Notes: a model not told the origin generated them from the sequence alone. Counted from the stretch's first letter, positions 20,214 to 29,292 are shown. The stretch is 32,000 bases of DNA from Mycoplasma mycoides subsp. capri (GCF_018389705.1 NZ_CP065581.1:270001-302000); one strand, 5' to 3'. Numbers and translations are program-made.

Positions 20214-20969
20214 ATGAAAACCGGTATTTTATTAAGTTTGTGTTATGATGGTAGTAATTATCATGGTTGAATTAATCAAACTAATGCAATAAGTATTCAA
20301 ACTACTTTAAATAAAGCTATTAAAAAAGTTATTAAAACTGATCAATTTAAAACAATTGGAGCTAGTAAAACTGATACTAATGTTCATGCTTTAGATCAAA
20401 AAGTTTTATTAATTATTTACTTTACTCCAATTTTAGAAAAATTTATTAAAGCTATTAATAAAGCTTTACCTAGTGATATTAAGATTTTAGATGCTAAATT
20501 TGTTGATCCAAATTTTAATATAAGAGAAGTTGAATATAAAATTTATCACTATTATATTAATGACCATCAATTTGATATTTTTACTAATCGGTATGAATAT
20601 TTTTGAAAACATCAAAAAATCGATATTATAAAACTACAAGAAATTTTTAATCTTTTTATTGGTGAACATGAGTTTAAACTATTTTCTGGGTTAAAAGAAA
20701 ATGAGTGAAATCAATATCAAACAAAAAGAACTATTGATGATATTAAAGTTTTAAGAATCAATAATAAAGTAGTAATTGAATTTAAAGCATCTGGTTTTAT
20801 TAGATATCAAATTAGAATTATTATTGCAAATTGTTTAAATGCTTATTTAAATCATAAAATTTCAACTACTAAGTTAGTTGAAATGTTAAAAGGAATTGGA
20901 AAAAAAACTCCTTTTATAATTGATGCTAAAGGTTTAGTATTACAAAAAATTCAATTTAATAAAAATTAA
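20214..20969 (+). CDS. truA: tRNA pseudouridine(38-40) synthase TruA
   Basis: ATG at 20214. 'LCYDGSNYHGWINQ...GASKTDTNVHALDQ' includes the catalytic Asp motif. Several TGA=Trp codons. TAA at 20967-20969 (251 aa). Not in the track because of TGA fragmentation. Confidence 0.88.
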
Positions 20970-21016: not shown

Positions 21017-21025
21017 TGATATAAT
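21017..21025 (+). promoter_or_regulatory. Extended -10 promoter element (TGaTATAAT) upstream of the giant permease gene
   Basis: TGATATAAT at 21017-21025, 30 nt upstream of the first in-frame ATG. There is no good -35. Confidence 0.4.
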
Positions 21026-21054: not shown

Positions 21055-24000
21055 ATGATGAGTATGAAAACTAAAAATAAAAAAAATAAATGATTAGGAT
21101 TAATTTTAAAAAACTCTTTAAAAAATTCTTTTAAATATAAATCACAATTGTTTGGTTTAGTTTTATTAGTAATGATTATGAGTTTAATTATGTCTTTAAT
21201 ATCTGCAATTAATTCTAGAGTTTTAGATAAGTATGATGATTTAATTACTAATTCTAATCAACACAATTTAGTTTTAAAACTAGATCCTTATGAAAATGTA
21301 TCAACTAGTTTAATTACTTCTAATAACCAAATTCAAGTTCAACAACAATATATAAATCGCTTAAATGAGAAATTATATTCTAGATATAATTTTAAGTTTG
21401 ACTGATCAAGAACTGAATCTCGCGAATTTAAACAAGTTAAATCTTTAAATAATTTACAAACTTTAAAAGCTGTTTCTAAACAATATTTAACTGATAATAA
21501 AGTTGATCAATTAGTAATTGTTAAAGGTAGAAATATAAATTCTAATAAAGAAGTTTTAATTGATCCAATTTATGCTAAAAAACATAATATTAAAATTAAT
21601 GATATTATTAGATTTCAAAAAGATGTTTTAGGAGATCAATTATTAGTAAATTCATTAGAAAATAAAACTACTACAAAACAACAATTTGAAGATATTAATA
21701 AAATCACAAAGCAAGGACTAACTGATAATAATGGTATTTATCAAATTAAGTACGCAAGTAGTTTTGATTGATATCAAGTTGTTGGTTTTGCAAACTCTGC
21801 TGATTTTATTTTTCCAACAATTAATGCTTATTCACCAATCCCAAACCGTTTAAATGAAGGAATTATTTATGTTGATCCTTTAAGATTTGGTTTAATTAAA
21901 CAAACTGATGGATTTTATAAATATGATTCAACTAGTTCTAAATTAGTTGTAAGTTCAAATAATGAGTGAGAATCTTTTTATTCACTAAAAACTAATCAAA
22001 AATTAAGTGATGAAATTATTGATTGAATGAATCAATATTTTAGTCAACTAATTAATAAAAAAGCTCAAGATAAATGAATTTATAAATTAGAAGATCCAAA
22101 TTATAGATTTAATTCTAGAACTAGTGTTATTAAAAAAACAATCGGTGCTTATAATATTTATTCATTTATTGTTTTATTAGCAGTTATTAGCGTTGTTTTA
22201 TATACTACTTTTTTAATTACTAAAAAACAAATTTTAAACTCTCGTGGTCAAATTGGAACAATGAGAGCTATTGGATATAAAAAACGCCAAATGGTACTTA
22301 ACTATGTGATGATGCCATTTTTTACAAGTATTGTTGGTGGAATTTTAGGATATATTTTATCTTGTTTAATTTCAATAATTATTATTAATAGATTTTCTAA
22401 TTATTTTAGTCTAGATTATGGTGTTTTTAGTTTTGATTGAATTGGGTTATTAAACAATCTAATTTTTATGTGACTAATAATTTCAGCTATTTCATTTTTA
22501 ATTGGTTATTTAATTATGAAAAAAGGAGCTATTAATTTATTAGAAAATAGAAATGCTAAAAAAATCTCAAAATTAGGTAGTTTAATTAAAAGTTTATCTA
22601 ATAAGAGAAAGTTTAATCATCGTTTAAGAGCTGCTTTATTAGTTAATTCTGGATCTAAACTCACTGGAGTTGGATTTGTTGTTTTAATTGCTACAATTTT
22701 ATTTACTATTTCTTTTGTTTCACCAAATTTATTAAAAAATAATAAGATTTATGCTTATAATGGTGTTAAATACAACCAAATTGTTGAATATAGTCAACCA
22801 ACTTATAACAACCCTTTTTCTTTTATAAGAGTTTTTAATCCTGATAAAAAATCAGATGATAAATATAATATTATAAAAAATAATAATAGATATTTAGCAA
22901 CCTCTTTACCTACTAAAGATAATCAATATGATTTACAAACTATTATTAATGATTATTTAAATCAAACTTATAATAATGCTTATTATAGTTTAGCTATTGA
23001 CTTACAAGATAAACAAGAAGTTCAAGCAATTAATTTAGCTTTATCTAATATGAAATTATTACAAGCTCAAGATATTGCTTTAACAAAACAATATTTTAAA
23101 TATATTTCAAGCTTATCTATAACACCTAGTTCAATTCATCATATTTTGTTAAAAAATTGACCTGATTATGATAATTTAATTAATAAGTTAAAAGAAATTA
23201 AAGAAAATGAATTTGAAACTTTATTAAACCAGTTTAAATATTTACAACAATTTTATGCAACTTATACAAATAGTATTGGTTTAGCAATTAATAGATCTTA
23301 TATTAATAGTTTTGATTTAAAAGATAAAAAAGATTTAAGAATTCAAAAATTTAATAATAATAGTTCTGAACAAAACAATTTAAAAACTAAAGCTTATGAT
23401 GATATTTTAAATAGTGATTTATTAGCATTATCTAAATCAAGTTTTTCTTCAAAAGAATTTAAGGATAACATAATTGATCAGTTTAAATTAACTAATAGTG
23501 ATTCTAGTTTAGGTATGTATCATATTTTAGATAATAAGTGAAATAAATCTAATTCTATATCTGATCAATTTTTAGATATTTCTGCTTTTGATTTTATTAA
23601 TAAAAAATATAAATTAGATGATTTAAAAGATTTAGTTGCAAAATTAGTTTTATGATTTAGTGTAATGTTTTATAAAAGAGATGATCAAGCTTTAATTCAA
23701 GCAGCTTATTCACGTGCTCCTTATTTTGTAAAACAAAACTTAAAGATTTCATATAATAGTAATAAAGATTATACTTTAGGATTTAATTTAACTACTTTTA
23801 ATAAAAACTATGAACAATTAGGAACTTTATTAAATGTAAAAACATTAGATAATAAACATACATTTAAGATTTATGGAATTTTAAATAACCATGATTATAT
23901 TAATTTATATGATCAAAATAAAACTGATTTAATTAAAAAGTTGTTTGATTCAGAACAAAATAGTATTATTATTAATCAAACTATAGCAAAAAGATTAAAT

Positions 24001-25209
24001 TTAAAACCTAATGATAAGATTTCATTAAATGTTTTACAAAATGAACTACAACATATAAAAAATAATAAAACTACTGTTTTTAAAACTGATGATTGATCTA
24101 TGAAACAAGATACAAGTTATGATAGTTTTATTCAAAGATCAGATATTAGTACAAATAATTTAAAAGTTAAAACTAATAATAGTGTTTTAGAATTAAATAA
24201 TGGTTTTTCAGATGTTAATAGTTATTATAAAAGTTATTTAGATAATGAATTAAAACTTGGAACTAAAATTCAAAACAAAACATTTAAAATAGTTGGTATT
24301 CATGATGGATATAATGAAAATATGGCTTGAATCAAAGAAAGTGATGCTCAAGAAATTTTAAATTATAAACAAAACAAATCTATTTGATGAAAAGATATTT
24401 TTGCACCTCAATGAAACAAAACTTTTTCATCAATTCAAGCAAAACAAGTTTTAAATGATAGTTTAGATTTAAATAATAAATCTTTAACTGATTATAGTTA
24501 TGAACAATTTGTTAATGAATTTATTAATAATAAAAATCATAAGAATCATAAAATAGCTAAAAAAGTTTTACAAATCTTTGATAATCAATTTCCAATTTTT
24601 AATTACAAATATTCAAAAAGTAATGATATTGGTAATTTAGATACAATAGTTTCAACTTATTCAAAAATTGCTGATTATAATCCTGTTAGTTTAAATGGAC
24701 AGCATTTAGAAAATAAAACTAGTTATGATGGAATTGGACAAGGAGTAATTCAAACTATTACTCCAATTCAAATCACAAAACAAATTCTAGATCAAATCTC
24801 TAATTTAGTAATGTTAGCTTTAGTTTTAGCAATTATTACAATATTAATGATTGCATTTGTAATTATTTTATTAACAACATCATTAATTATTTCAGATAAT
24901 ACTAGGTTTATTGCTACTTTAAAAGTTTTAGGTTATTCAAATAAATACATTACAGAAAATATTTTAGGAATGTATTTTATAGTTATTGCTAATATGTTAG
25001 TAATTGGATTTATTAGTGGTTGGTTTATTTTTGAGTCAACTATTAAGTCATTATATTCAATTATAGTTCTACCAATTATTTTTCCAATTTGATTACCTTT
25101 TGCTGTGATTCTTGCAGTTAGTGGAATATATTTGATTACTTTAATTGTTGGATTTAATTCAATTTATAAAACTGATGCAACTTTAACTTTAAAAGATAAT
25201 GATGTATAA
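21055..25209 (+). CDS. Giant tandem FtsX/MacB-type ABC permease: 8 predicted TM helices, two FtsX domains, two large extracytoplasmic domains; substrate unknown
   Basis: Track ORFs at 21148, 22516, 23665, 24100 and 24811 are all in frame 1. I translated the first gap (21406-22515) codon by codon, and it contains TGA but no TAA/TAG. I read through the other gaps with the same result but did not index them codon by codon. Frame 1 is open from a TAA at 21025-27 to TAA at 25207-09 (1384 aa from ATG 21055; alternative starts at 21058 and 21064). There are two FtsX-like segments: 'GQIGTMRAIGYKKRQMVLNYVMMPF' plus 3 TM, and 'RFIATLKVLGYSNKYITENILGMYF' plus 3 TM. Each is preceded by a single TM and an ectodomain with MacB-like strings (VIVKGRNINSNKEVLIDPIYAKKHNIKINDIIRF; FKIVGIHDGYNENMAWIKESDAQEIL). 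Confidence 0.85.
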
Positions 25210-25248: not shown

Positions 25249-25277
25249 TTGATAAATAGCTTAAGATTATATATAAT
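25249..25277 (+). promoter_or_regulatory. Promoter of rplM-rpsI (TTGATA-17 nt-TATAAT)
   Basis: TTGATA at 25249-54, an exactly 17-nt spacer, and a perfect TATAAT at 25272-77, 62 nt upstream of the rplM ATG. Confidence 0.7.
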
Positions 25278-25338: not shown

Positions 25339-25794
25339 ATGAAACAAACTACAATGATTTCTGCAAAAGACATCAATAAAAAATGATATATTGTTGATGC
25401 AGAAAATAAAACTGTGGGGAGATTAGCAACTCAAGTTGCTCTTGTATTAAGAGGAAAACATAAAGTTGATTTTACTCCACATATTAATAATGGAGATCAC
25501 GTTATTATAATTAATGCTGAAAAAGCAATTTTTTCTGGAAAAAAAGAATCTAATAAATTCTACTATCACCATTCAATGCATCCTGGTGGATTGAAGAAAA
25601 GAAGTGTTGAAGTTCAAAGAGAACTAGATGCTACTAAGATTTTAGAAAGAGCTATTAGATTAATGCTTCCAAAAAACGTTCAAGGTTCAAACCAATACAG
25701 AGCTTTACATGTATTTAAAGGTTCACAACATCCATTTGCTGCACAAAAACCTGAAGTTTTAGAAATTTCAACTAAAAAAGGAGACGTTAAATAA
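25339..25794 (+). CDS. rplM: 50S ribosomal protein L13
   Basis: ATG at 25339. '[34 protein letters not shown]...'. The track ORF 25414 is a GTG-started fragment downstream of the TGA=Trp. 151 aa. Confidence 0.94.
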
Positions 25795-26192
25795 TGTTTA
25801 AAGATAAAGTTATTTACAGAGGAACTGGTAGAAGAAAATCATCAATTGCTCAAGTTATCTTAACTCCTGGATCAGGTTCAATTACAGTAAATGGAAAACC
25901 AGCTTTAGAATTCTTCCCATATGCTACTTTAGTTCAAGATTTAGAACAACCATTAGTAGCAACTAATACTTTAAAAGATTTTGATATTATTGTTAAAGTT
26001 ATTGGTGGGGGATTTACAGGTCAAGCTGGAGCAACTAGATTAGGTATTGCTAGAGCTTTACTACAAGCTAGTGAAGATTATAGAAAACTTTTAAGAGATC
26101 AAGGGTTATTAACTCGTGATGCTCGTATTAAAGAACGTAAAAAATATGGTCTACGTGGAGCACGTAGAGCACCTCAATACTCAAAACGTTAA
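25794..26192 (+). CDS. rpsI: 30S ribosomal protein S9
   Basis: 132-aa ORF ending '...[16 protein letters not shown]'. TAATG junction with rplM. Confidence 0.96.
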
Positions 26193-26199
26193 TCTCCAG

Positions 26200-26225
26200 A
26201 GCAACACATTTTGTGTTGCTTTTTA
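26200..26225 (+). terminator. Rho-independent terminator after rpsI
   Basis: AGCAACACA-ttt-TGTGTTGCT hairpin followed by TTTTATTT. Confidence 0.8.
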
Positions 26226-26350: not shown

Positions 26351-29143
26351 ATGAAGAAAATACTTGCTATTTTGAGTTCATTAACTTTAGTAAGTACTGG
26401 TGTATTTTCAACTGTTTTAGCTTGTAAAAAAAACCCAACTCCAACAACAAAACCAAATACAAATAATAATAAAGTACTTAAAAATAATTCTTTAGATAAT
26501 ATTAAAACAACTTCAGCTACGCTTTTAAAACAAGCTGTTTTAGCTGATATGTATGGTTATAATTTTGATTTTTTAAAATCTTATTTTAATAATAAAAACT
26601 TAAACGAACAAGCAAAAAAATATAAATTAAATACTGAAATTAAAGATAACATTACTTTATCAACAGATTTTGAAGATGCTTTAACTAATTATTTTTCAAC
26701 TAATTTAGTTATTAAAAAAAATGATAATGTTAATTTAGATGGGATTAAAGGAACTGATATAGATTTTTTAACTTCGGTTTTACCAAAAACAGTATTTGGA
26801 ACTACTAGTAAACAAATTAGTGCTGCTATTTCTATTATTTTAGAAAATATAAGTGGTGCTGGAATAACAGGTTTATTAGATCTTGCAAAAAATATTGATA
26901 TTAATAGTAAGTTTAGTGATTTTGTTAAAAATCTAAAAGTAAGTAAAGAATTAATAACAACACTTTTAAACACAATATTTACTAATGAGAAATTTTTAAA
27001 AGAATTAGAAGAAGAAATAGAAAAATTTGATGCTTTAACTTTATATAAAGATTTTGAATTATCTGAACTAAGTAATTTAGCTCTTTTAAATATATTAGAT
27101 GGTATTAATGGTATTTTAGATAAAGATTATCAGTTAGTATCTAGTGATATTAAAAAAAATAATGGTTTAAGTTTAAATGTAAGATTATGAAACACTTCAA
27201 AAACATTTATTAATAAAGTAGCAAAATTTGATCCAAGTTCAAATGTTGCTACAATTTCATCATTATCTAATAGTACTAGTCCAACAATTCTTCCTGCTAA
27301 TATCAAAAGAAATATCAAAACAGCTGCTAGCTTAATTAGAGGATTAGAGCTATTTCAGTATTTATTTAGTTTATTTGATGAATCTAGAAAAGATGAATTT
27401 AAAATTTCTGATGAAAATATTTTTGATAAAAGCAAAAAAAATAGTCAGTTTTTTAAAGAAACATATAAGTTAAATGACTCAAATGGTGGATCTAATAATG
27501 GTTCTAAAATAGAGAGTCTAAAGAAAAATGGGACTTCAAATGGTTCTACTTCTCAAACAACATTAAATTTAAAATATATAATTGATACTTTACAATACTA
27601 TTTAGGAAATTTAGATAAATCTGATAAAGCTTATCGCTTAAGACAATTTATAGGTATTTTATTTTCTGGAAAGTATACTGAAAATAGTTATAAATCAGAA
27701 AATAATAGCAGCAATAATTCTAATGAATATAAGAGTCTTTTCTTTGAATTTAATGGAAATAGTGGAAATCAAATAAAAGAAATTAAATTAAATGGTTTTC
27801 AAATTTTTCTAACTTCAATTTTATTTGAATCTCTTTCAAATATTAAATTACAAAACATAAAGATTGAAAGTGGTATATTTAGTTTAGCAAAACCATTTAT
27901 AGAAAAAATTAACCTTAAAAATTTCTTTGAAAGTGATGTATTTCTTAAACAAGGCTTGGCAGACTTTCTTATTTCATTAATGAACTTAATTACAGATTCT
28001 TTTGTATATAATCAACCACTAATTAATGATAATTTTGATAAAATACTAGAAAATTTATCTAAAATACTAAAAAATTTAAAAATAGAAGATTTATTAAAAG
28101 GTTTATTTAATGAAAATAATGGATTAGTAGGCTCTCTTAAATCATTAATAGAAAATTATATTAAATTTGATGATATTTCTAAAAAGATAGATGACTTTAT
28201 AAAAAATAAAGAAACATATTCTCTAGTTAAAGCAGGAATTAAGTCATTTATTCCAATTCTTGGTGAAAAGTTTTTTGAATATATTTATGATGGTAAAGTA
28301 GAACAAACATTTGATACACTAGCTAATCTATCAAATGATGTTCTTATAAGAACACTTGTAGAAAAACTAAAAATTCAAATACCAGCAGCATTAAATTTCA
28401 TACTACCTTACTTTAAAAAAATCGCTATGAGTTTGAGAACAATTTTTCCACCTGGTGTTCATTTAAATCTTAAGAATTTATTTACTATAAAATTATCTGA
28501 TTTTATTAAATTAGAAAATAAACCAAATTTTGGTTCTGATTATTTAGATAAATCTATAACCACAATTTTAAATGAACTATCTAATGCAGGAACTTCATCA
28601 TCTAAATTAAAAGAATTGGACAATGCATATGGTTTCAAAATAGACTCATTAAAAGAATTTATTAATAAAATTTTTAAATATGATTATAAATGAAATGGCG
28701 CTAACTCAGAAAACGGAGGAAATCTAATTTCATTACTTTTAAATAACCCTAATAAATTTAAAGAGATTATAGGTTTAACCGAAGAAGGAATGAAAAAAGA
28801 TTCAAATTCATTAATTGATATTTTATCAAACAAATTAATTCCAAATGATAAATCTAAAAATCAAGATAGTTTACAATGATTTGCTAGTGTATTAAATAAA
28901 GTTATTATTAATTTAAACAAAAAACCTAATTTTACAACTAGTTTAGAAAAACATTTTAATGATGATAAATTTAATAATTTTGAATTTAGTGATACAAAAA
29001 CTGAAAAATCTGGTTTAATAACTTCTCAAACTATTTCAACTACAATTAACAATCAAAAATATACATTAGTTATAACTAGAGATCCTAAACAGCCTACATT
29101 TATAGTAGAATCTTTAACAAAACAATTAGTACAAAATAATTAA
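26351..29143 (+). CDS. Large (930 aa) membrane-anchored lipoprotein of unknown function
   Basis: Signal peptide with lipobox 'MKKILAILSSLTLVSTGVFSTVLA|C', then a T/P/N-rich linker. Frame 2 is open from 26351 to TAA at 29141-43 when three TGA (27188, 28691, 28877) are read as Trp. I checked codons 27191-27955 one by one and found no stop. That stretch has no ATG either, which is why the track shows a gap and a TTG-started fragment at 27956. Confidence 0.85.
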
Positions 29144-29215: not shown

Positions 29216-29292
29216 CGGAATATAGCTCAGCTGGTTAGAGCACTCCGCTGATAACGGAGAGGTCGTTGGTTCAAGTCCAATTATTCCGACCA
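29216..29292 (+). tRNA. tRNA-Ile (anticodon GAT), CCA encoded
   Basis: 77-nt cloverleaf folded by hand. Acceptor stem CGGAATA/TATTCCG. D arm GCTC-AGCTGGTTA-GAGC. Anticodon arm CTCCG-CTGATAA-CGGAG. Variable loop AGGTC. T arm GTTGG-TTCAAGT-CCAAT. Discriminator A followed by CCA. Confidence 0.93.

Follow-up and report, generated by a model that had tools for sequence, protein, structure and literature searches.

A giant tandem FtsX-type permease at the truA-rplM junction of Mycoplasma mycoides and its candidate partners

Introduction

MacB and LolC/LolE are ATP-binding cassette (ABC) permeases of type VII, in which a module of four transmembrane (TM) segments carries a periplasmic domain between TM1 and TM2 and a coupling helix between TM2 and TM3, and which work with a MacB/LolD-type ATPase. 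MacB and LolCDE function by mechanotransmission and not by transbilayer transport, with LolCDE extracting lipoproteins from the outer leaflet. Here, we describe a relative with the same module plan—about 10% identical in sequence to MacB, LolC, and LolE—that is encoded between truA and rplM in a 32,000-nucleotide stretch of Mycoplasma mycoides subsp. capri DNA (GCF_018389705.1, NZ_CP065581.1:270001-302000; the whole stretch that was analyzed is called the window). MacB and LolC/LolE assemble as homo- or heterodimers from separate chains that are 400-650 residues long, whereas the M. mycoides permease is one fused chain of 1384 residues; MacB carries a fused ATPase and lolD adjoins lolC and lolE, both unlike the permease; and these systems need MacA-TolC or LolA together with an outer membrane, none of which Mollicutes have.

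The closest solved architecture is that of Escherichia coli YbbAP-TesA (PDB 9GE6/9GE7/9GE8), in which one YbbP chain, itself containing a pair of FtsX modules and a pair of periplasmic domains, joins two molecules of a discrete ATPase of the MacB type and one periplasmic partner; removal of hydrophobic compounds from the membrane is its proposed role (PMC12646458). The permease likewise unites two FtsX modules and two outside domains in a single chain. However, YbbP has 10 TM segments, with TM5-6 as the link, in about 800 residues, whereas the permease has eight and a cytoplasmic linker; ybbA adjoins ybbP, whereas the candidate ATPase of the permease is distant; and the partner of YbbAP is the hydrolase TesA, whereas the candidate partner here is a lipoprotein of the MOLPALP type. 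The NCBIfam YbbP equivalog model scores the permease at 16.1 bits, against a cut-off of 999. BceAB of Bacillus subtilis also combines a single chain of two FtsX modules with two ATPases (BceA), but BceB has 10 TM segments and one outside domain, and the system detects and detoxifies peptide antibiotics directed against cell-wall precursors and signals to BceS, a role inapplicable to a wall-less organism; Mollicutes have no peptidoglycan. FtsX proper is a single four-TM protein of about 300 residues with a small domain that binds hydrolase activators, in contrast to the tandem permease, and FtsX structures appeared in the fold search described below at E values of 0.16 or higher.

The permease gene lies in Mollicute DNA of 26% G+C in which TGA encodes tryptophan. 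An earlier reading made without database searches (hereafter the sequence-only reading) had described one long frame broken only by such codons, and table-4 translation indeed gives 17 in-frame TGA and no TAA or TAG in the 1384 codons; the public annotation begins at the third ATG (21,064), giving 1381-1382 residues. The closest protein is an M. mycoides "ABC transporter permease" (99% identity) whose locus matches the window in gene order, and the gene is the ortholog of MMSYN1_0639 (JCVISYN3A_0639), with the published tables numbering truA 0640 and rplM 0638. MMSYN1_0639 has already been published as an FtsX-like permease and is one of four such permeases—0639, 0034, 0399, and 0531—kept in JCVI-syn3.0 (PMC6629657). 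Transposon mutagenesis data, the consultation of which had been recommended, score JCVISYN3A_0639 as essential in Syn3A (PMC6609329, supplementary file 3). Both gene and family assignment are therefore in the public domain, and the sequence-only reading was right in describing the family as not new and functionally uncharacterized; no functional study was found in the literature on MOLPALP, STREFT, FtsX in Mollicutes, or these gene identifiers.

The permease differs from the characterized members in its direct eight-TM fusion, its huge lineage-specific second ectodomain, its unlinked and probably shared ATPase, and its recurrent lipoprotein neighbor. On balance, we consider it probable that it belongs to an ABC machine that acts outside the cell and is driven by a shared ATPase encoded in trans. 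If the conservative part of this reading alone holds, the permease is an ordinary annotated family member with an unusual eight-TM fused architecture.

Architecture of the permease

Hydropathy gives eight TM segments in a 4+4 arrangement (about residues 31-53, 365-388, 417-446, 463-488, 536-555, 1250-1280, 1301-1326, and 1335-1368), and published TMHMM results for the ortholog also give eight helices, with residues 52-361 and 548-1247 outside and the N-terminus, the TM2-TM3 loop, and the TM4-TM5 linker inside. The N-terminus, the TM2-TM3 and TM6-TM7 loops, and the TM4-TM5 linker are all basic, the N-terminus and the linker being K/R-rich, and therefore both large domains should face outward. 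The permease is a single-chain pseudo-dimer, that is, two four-TM FtsX modules joined by a basic linker, with an outside domain between the first and second helix of each module; the ten-TM layout of YbbP/BceB-type fused permeases is replaced by eight segments and a linker of about 45 residues. This topology bears out the sequence-only reading, which had placed ectodomains of about 310 and 690 residues in a 4+4 frame, the outside stretches measuring about 310 and 700 residues (Table 1).

Pfam FtsX (PF02687) matches the permease twice (whole-protein E 1.2e-27, 96.8 bits, cut-off 25.5) and is found in each half of all 12 orthologs, and the two FtsX domains align to each other at E 8e-10 (hhalign, N-half against C-half). 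The permease is almost certainly a pair of type VII ABC permease modules. The FtsX loop pattern that had been noted in both three-TM blocks is present, and its core residues—G401, G407, and Y408 in loop 1 and L1292, G1293, and Y1294 in loop 2 (window numbering)—do not vary among 20 relatives spanning M. mycoides to Spiroplasma. The position of this GxxxxxGY-type motif matches the coupling helices of YbbP, and, by analogy, both loops are presumed to be coupling helices that dock a nucleotide-binding domain (NBD).

An AlphaFold model of the N-half (residues 1-508), built with 12 orthologs, has a mean predicted local distance difference test (pLDDT) score of 70, with values of 80-90 in parts of ectodomain 1. 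In Foldseek searches against the PDB, its top matches were solely type VII ABC permeases (YbbP, MacB, LolC/E, Spr0695, BceB, YtrF, and HrtB), with E. coli YbbP the best and about 490 columns aligned to MacB, YbbP, LolC/E, and Spr0695, and the isolated MacB periplasmic domain 3ftj matched at E 9e-4. As modeled, ectodomain 1 is MacB-like at the fold level (Porter and Sabre core). The C-half model is poor (mean pLDDT 57.7), although scores of 80-90 extend over a helical insert at about residues 700-885 of ectodomain 2, and only its TM bundle matched known structures, the best being BceB.

The MacB/LolC likeness that the sequence-only reading had seen in both ectodomains is therefore supported at the fold level for ectodomain 1 alone. 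Pfam MacB_PCD, the second model proposed for checking, gave no match to the permease itself; it matched ectodomain 1 in one of 12 orthologs (E 0.001) and ectodomain 2 in one of 12 (E 0.55). An hhalign comparison of ectodomain 2 with ectodomain 1 gave E 0.01 at a probability of 4%, and a profile of ectodomain 2 found no match among PDB sequences at E 10 or below. The C-terminal part of ectodomain 2 holds conserved motifs (FKIYGI..INQ.LAK.LNL, FKVVGIHDGYG..AWI, and PIFNYKYS), and a profile of this part retrieved 74 proteins, nearly all of 1200-1700 residues, among 1.84 billion representatives. Judged by its sequence, ectodomain 2 is lineage-specific.

Table 1. Features of the permease and its neighborhood (window positions; aa, amino acid residues).
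Feature	Position	Residues	Strand	Basis
Giant tandem FtsX-type permease, coding sequence	21055-25209	1384 aa from first ATG	+	Single table-4 frame
TM1	21139-21207	~29-51	+	Hydropathy; ortholog TMHMM; K-rich cytoplasmic N-terminus before TM1
Ectodomain 1 (TM1-TM2)	21208-22137	~52-361 (~310 aa)	+	MacB-like periplasmic-domain fold (model)
First FtsX domain, TM2-TM4	22138-22524	~362-490	+	PF02687 at residues 372-490
TM2-TM3 cytoplasmic loop motif GQIGTMRAIGYKKRQ, presumed coupling helix 1 for the NBD	22246-22290		+	Invariant residues
Basic cytoplasmic linker between the four-TM modules, no extra TM helices	22525-22659	~45 aa	+	Hydropathy; TMHMM "inside 484-524" in ortholog
TM5	22660-22719	~536-555	+	Hydropathy; TMHMM
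Ectodomain 2 (TM5-TM6)	22720-24801	~556-1249 (~700 aa)	+	Lies between TM5 and TM6
Second FtsX domain, TM6-TM8	24802-25170	~1250-1372	+	PF02687 at C-half residues 747-862
TM6-TM7 cytoplasmic loop motif RFIATLKVLGYSNKY, presumed coupling helix 2	24904-24948		+	Invariant residues
MOLPALP lipoprotein, MMSYN1_0636 ortholog, candidate partner	26351-29143	930 aa	+	TIGR04547; lipobox ...VLAC
rplM-rpsI (rplM 25339-25794), between permease and lipoprotein gene	25339-26192		+	Table-4 translations
Upstream block: ecfA1, ecfA2, ecfT, truA	17062-18288, 18276-19187, 19201-20211, 20214-20969		+	Pfam families on identical M. mycoides locus
Extended -10-like element TGATATAAT	21017-21025		+	Exact string, 30 nucleotides upstream of first ATG

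A distant MacB-type ATPase

The permease is not adjoined by a cognate ATPase of the MacB/LolD/FtsE type. As the sequence-only reading had stated, ecfA1 and ecfA2 are the sole NBD-like open reading frames (ORFs) of the 32 kb, and both are of the energy-coupling factor (ECF) type by Pfam family and Walker B strings. No MacB-type ATPase was found within 10 kb of the ortholog or its paralogs in M. mycoides, in M. florum, or at six Spiroplasma loci. An ABC NBD lies about 9.6 kb downstream of the permease in M. mycoides, just outside the window, but its partial C-terminal sequence resembles a small two-gene ABC pair and not the MacB type, and it is missing from the JCVI-syn3.0 gene list although 0639 remains essential. 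ABC ATPases near the loci of relatives were rejected as partners, each directly preceding its own membrane-protein gene (Walker B FFDEPTANVD or VLDEPTSGLD), as was a nearby ABC cassette in M. seiffertii, which is a Phn-like importer.

The permease had also been called an orphan. This is correct insofar as no MacB-type ATPase adjoins it, even just outside the window, but the genome does encode one: the recommended genome-level look for an unlinked NBD of the MacB/FtsE type led, in the published tables, to MMSYN1_0030 (344 residues), whose residues 112-326 match cd03255 (ABC_MJ0796_LolCDE_FtsE) at E 8.5e-105 and which has DevA, LolD, and FtsE as its best TIGRFAMs. Among the matches listed in the Syn3A and syn3.0 tables, it is the only K02003/LolD/cd03255 entry. 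MMSYN1_0030 is essential whereas its nearest permease, 0034, is nonessential, which means that 0030 must serve an essential client at another locus; the foremost candidates are the essential 0639 and the quasi-essential 0399. Syn3A proteomics (PMC6609329) gives 377-382 copies per cell for 0030, 65-95 for 0639, 47-59 for 0399, and 6-9 for 0034; the columns look like copy numbers per cell, since dividing them by the mole fractions gives 77,000. The ATPase would thus be plentiful enough to provide each permease with two copies and still leave some for 0531. The paralogs 0034, 0399, and 0531 (1795, 1753, and 1482 residues) share with 0639 the 4+4 TM layout, two huge outside domains, and the lack of an adjacent ATPase, and differ in having a larger ectodomain 1 (about 510-620 residues). 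The paralogs are highly diverged, a word-indexed search with the 1814-residue M. florum paralog finding no match in M. mycoides.

A linked arrangement is found in the outgroup. A reference-genome scan retrieved distant relatives of the permease (20-23% identity; 1255-1398 residues, 4+4 layout) in M. todarodis, M. marinum, and a Mycoplasmatales metagenome-assembled genome, and in all three a gene for an NBD of 318-332 residues (Walker B ILIGDEPTGALD), which has a basic N-terminal extension of about 90 residues, stops 1-2 nucleotides before the permease gene. Spiroplasma orthologs of this NBD are 55-58% identical, with BceA, MJ0796, MacB, YtrE, and YbbA as best solved relatives and DevA, MacB, LolD, YbbA, and FtsE as best NCBIfam models; the best 120 entries of this search include Spiroplasma orthologs and none from M. 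mycoides. In S. sabaudiense, the NBD gene stands alone in the order tilS-ftsH-hsp33-NBD-dus-lysS-...-rpsF-ssb-rpsR, with no FtsX gene within 10 kb, and this neighborhood matches the 0025-0064 region of M. mycoides, where 0030 lies, the site being syntenic with 0025-0047. The simplest reading is that an ancestral ATPase-permease operon was replaced, in the clade of Spiroplasma, Mesoplasma, and the mycoides group, by one solo ATPase and dispersed permease paralogs. Since neither loop motif varies between M. mycoides and Spiroplasma, ATPase docking would still be required. It is likely that the permease is driven in trans by an ATPase of the 0030 type, and this ATPase probably serves all four paralogs.

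M. genitalium and M. pneumoniae have giant permeases (more than 1300 residues; MG_064/065 and MG_467/468) that are annotated as ABC permeases without an assigned substrate and that have an adjacent ATPase gene, like the M. todarodis loci. In the Spiroplasma endosymbiont of Stenodema calcarata (L037, 10001-16853), the solo ATPase gene after hsp33 is followed by four small ORFs and then a gene for a shorter FtsX permease of 1115 residues, an arrangement in which a trace of the ancestral linkage may survive. In these Mollicutes, the MacB-type ATPase has a strongly basic N-terminal extension of 70-110 residues (L033, 7702-8694; L034, 7522-8520; L038, 10001-10939; 0030 from the literature), which typical MacB, LolD, and FtsE do not have, and which might anchor an otherwise free ATPase at the membrane or on several permeases.

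The neighboring MOLPALP lipoprotein

Two genes downstream of the permease lies the ortholog of MMSYN1_0636, which matches TIGR04547 over the whole model (E 3.7e-201, 670.6 bits, cut-off 65, model positions 1-807 of 807) and also the LP_plasma signal, and which by sequence has no solved relative. In Syn3A, 0636 is essential and present at 81-111 copies per cell, as against 65-95 for 0639, that is, the two are near equimolar. TIGR04547 also matches 0398, which adjoins 0399 (E 1.5e-175), and the C-terminal half of the "STREFT" protein 0033, which adjoins 0034 (E 1.5e-10), so that a TIGR04547-matching neighbor stands at three of the four giant permease loci of M. mycoides; as far as matches are listed in the syn3.0 tables, the full-length ones are 0636 and 0398 alone. 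The essentiality classes agree in two of the pairs, with 0639 and 0636 both essential and 0399 and 0398 both quasi-essential. No publication mentioning an association of MOLPALP proteins with giant permeases was found.

The association recurs in other genera. M. florum has the order Mollicu_LP-permease-permease-DJ-1, syntenic with 0398-0399-0400, and, after truA, a permease, an 844-residue protein (weak Mollicu_LP), an 829-residue protein on the opposite strand (TIGR04547 9e-17), and another permease. In Spiroplasma TIUS-1, an 835-residue lipoprotein (TIGR04547 7e-10) is encoded directly upstream of a permease of 1829 residues, and MOLPALP-like genes follow rpsI in Tullyiplasma multilocale, Mesoplasma photuris, and M. 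seiffertii (TIGR04547 neighbors in M. florum, Spiroplasma TIUS-1, and T. multilocale, in our locus coordinates: L006, 7475-9973; L007, 4839-9889; L008, 7484-9991; L010, 15360-23612). In T. multilocale, there are three tandem TIGR04547 copies after rpsI.

Proposed mechanism and alternatives

The permease would bind two copies of a MacB-type ATPase on its two conserved cytoplasmic loops, by analogy with solved systems; two copies are expected because each module keeps the loop that docks the ATPase in relatives. The 0030 ortholog would power 0639 along with its paralogs 0034, 0399, and 0531, and the outside domains would be set in motion by the binding and hydrolysis of ATP, as happens in MacB, LolCDE, and YbbAP. 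The target would lie in or on the outer leaflet of the membrane and be handled jointly with the MOLPALP lipoprotein. That this lipoprotein is the outside partner is an appealing possibility that we stop short of calling probable. The substrate might be a membrane lipid, a sterol, or a lipoprotein rather than a drug, given that the system is essential in drug-free rich medium; this guess is doubtful. More broadly, the clade may run a family of essential surface machines, each made of a giant eight-TM permease and its own large lipoprotein (MOLPALP, STREFT, or others) and all served by one ATPase with a basic N-terminal extension, that handle outer-leaflet lipids by acquiring sterol or phospholipid or by extracting or placing lipoproteins—a scheme that, taken whole, we rate as rather unlikely.

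Several observations weigh against the proposed machine. The pairings of 0639 with 0030 and with 0636 are ones that we infer, as is the substrate, and the class of 0030 is taken from published tables and not from its sequence. The mean pLDDT of the N-half model is just 70, and ectodomain 2, half of the protein, received no fold assignment from AlphaFold, Foldseek, Pfam, hhalign, or the PDB profile. As regards the lipoprotein, 0033 and 0034 are mismatched in essentiality (essential and nonessential, respectively); M. yeatsii and Williamsoniiplasma lucivorax have no MOLPALP gene at this site; and at 13 Citri-type Spiroplasma loci the permease is followed by a different lipoprotein, of 319-332 residues, that is not MOLPALP by hidden Markov model. 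Between the permease stop and rplM, furthermore, is a promoter-like TTGATA-17-TATAAT (11 of 12 consensus positions; 25249-25277), and after rpsI is a terminator-like hairpin with an 11-bp stem (26198-26222), such that rplM-rpsI apparently forms its own transcription unit and separates 0636 from 0639. Finally, adjacency to a lipoprotein gene can arise by chance, Mollicutes having many lipoproteins.

In a narrower alternative, a type VII machine powered by 0030 acts alone or with a non-MOLPALP partner and the lipoprotein adjacency is coincidental. The loci lacking a MOLPALP gene, the substitute lipoprotein in Citri-type Spiroplasma, the apparently separate transcription of 0636, and the lack of a lipoprotein neighbor of 0531 in the syn3.0 list all speak for it, but they have to be set against TIGR04547 neighbors at three of four M. 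mycoides loci and in several genera, matched essentiality in two pairs, and near-equimolar 0636 and 0639, and we give this alternative a small but appreciable probability. The permease could also be a conventional MacB-type drug or toxin efflux pump expelling compounds from the membrane or cell surface, as its public annotation ("efflux ABC transporter permease"; COG "Defense mechanisms") and its structural likeness to MacB and Spr0693-0695 would have it. However, 0639 is essential in Syn3A in rich medium, a condition for which no drug selection is implied; there is no adaptor protein or outer-membrane duct in an organism without an outer membrane; and four paralogs with huge lineage-specific outside domains, several adjoining TIGR04547-matching proteins, are unlike generic efflux, which makes this explanation improbable.

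Two further possibilities concern the power source. An ATPase-independent surface or scaffold protein (a receptor, adhesin, or membrane organizer) that merely keeps the FtsX fold would be in keeping with the absence of an adjacent NBD at every Spiroplasma, Mesoplasma, and mycoides-clade locus seen and with the very large, fast-diverging outside domains, given the few relatives of ectodomain 2. Yet such a protein would not be expected to keep both loop motifs invariant, the outgroup retains the NBD-permease operon, and the solo MacB-type NBD is conserved, essential, abundant, and without other plausible clients; we regard this possibility as very improbable. That the permease is instead powered by EcfA/EcfA', encoded just upstream, is scarcely credible: the ecfA1-ecfA2-ecfT-truA-permease linkage in all eight group loci and in Apis-type Spiroplasma, together with the unusual N-terminal extension of EcfA1 (about 130 residues), would favor it, but the ecf-truA-rplM order is general in Firmicutes regardless of the permease, EcfT is the docking site of ECF ATPases, a MacB-type NBD accompanies this permease type in the outgroup operon, the Citri-type permease lies away from the ecf genes, and the genome holds a dedicated essential MacB-type NBD.

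The permease driven by a shared, unlinked ATPase would matter in several respects. MMSYN1_0639, 0030, and 0636 are three of the genes of JCVI-syn3.0/3A, the smallest genome of a free-living cell, that are essential and lack an assigned function, and grouping them with 0399/0398 and 0034/0033 merges several separate questions into a single hypothesis of a machine that can be tested. If correct, one ABC ATPase serves several unlinked type VII permeases, and it would become clear what MacB-type mechanotransmission does in cells that have no wall and no outer membrane. We know of no proteins yet assigned to lipid and sterol acquisition or to lipoprotein handling in these cells.

Age of the locus and further observations

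In Bacillus and other Firmicutes, the order is ecfA-ecfA'-ecfT-truA-rplM, with truA abutting rplM. The order ecfA1-ecfA2-ecfT-truA-permease-...-rplM-rpsI was found in eight of eight loci of the mycoides/Mesoplasma group (M. yeatsii, Mycoplasma sp. HU2014, T. multilocale, formerly Acholeplasma, M. photuris, M. seiffertii, M. grammopterae, another Mesoplasma sp., and W. lucivorax); M. florum retains the truA side of the junction; and between truA and rplM of S. diminutum and Apis-type Spiroplasma lie one or two permeases of this kind. Citri-type Spiroplasma have the permease away from the ecf genes. The GC content (0.207) and third-codon-position GC (0.068) of the permease gene are those of truA and of the downstream lipoprotein gene, and this native composition, together with the conserved position across the clade, led to the rejection of a recent horizontal insertion. 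The DNA at the truA-rplM junction that is extra relative to Bacillus is thus ancient. The sequence-only reading, which had described the gene as inserted in a conserved block and had proposed comparing the junction across species, was right as to the place and wrong insofar as a recent event was meant, since the position is held across the mycoides/Mesoplasma group and in Apis-type Spiroplasma. It had further given the gene its own extended -10 element. The string TGATATAAT is present, but a promoter scan of the region did not rise above shuffled sequence (35 sites against 53 expected); the element is therefore not evidence of function, and it was dismissed as a sign of an independent promoter.

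In some species, the gap between the permease and rplM has taken up other genes (L012, 14364-20509; L018, 15242-19557). In M. seiffertii, this cargo is a Phn-like importer consisting of two PhnD-like lipoproteins, a PhnC-like ATPase, and a fused PhnE-like permease of 865 residues. S. diminutum (L003, 2636-15190) has giant permeases of 1461 and 1380 residues between truA and rplM, with a 232-residue multi-TM protein and a 670-residue lipoprotein encoded between the two and a 347-residue lipoprotein following the second one. It may be that the junction once carried a larger ancestral cluster. The lipoprotein of Citri-type Spiroplasma (L021-L032; for example, L021, 14132-15091, and L025, 14064-15059), the gene for which starts at most 13 nucleotides from the permease stop or overlaps it, is related to the 347-residue protein of S. 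diminutum.

The window offers some further details. EcfA1 has 408 residues, and its N-terminal extension, rich in K, E, Q, and N, is kept in all relatives seen (396-415 residues in total). Between the MOLPALP gene and leuS is a tRNA-Ile (GAT) gene (29216-29292), which matches JCVISYN3A_0635. When TGA is read as tryptophan, antisense ORFs of 130-390 residues appear opposite real genes (17148-18308, 10670-11407, and 5545-6108, all on the minus strand), which are probably artifacts of A+T-rich, stop-poor DNA.

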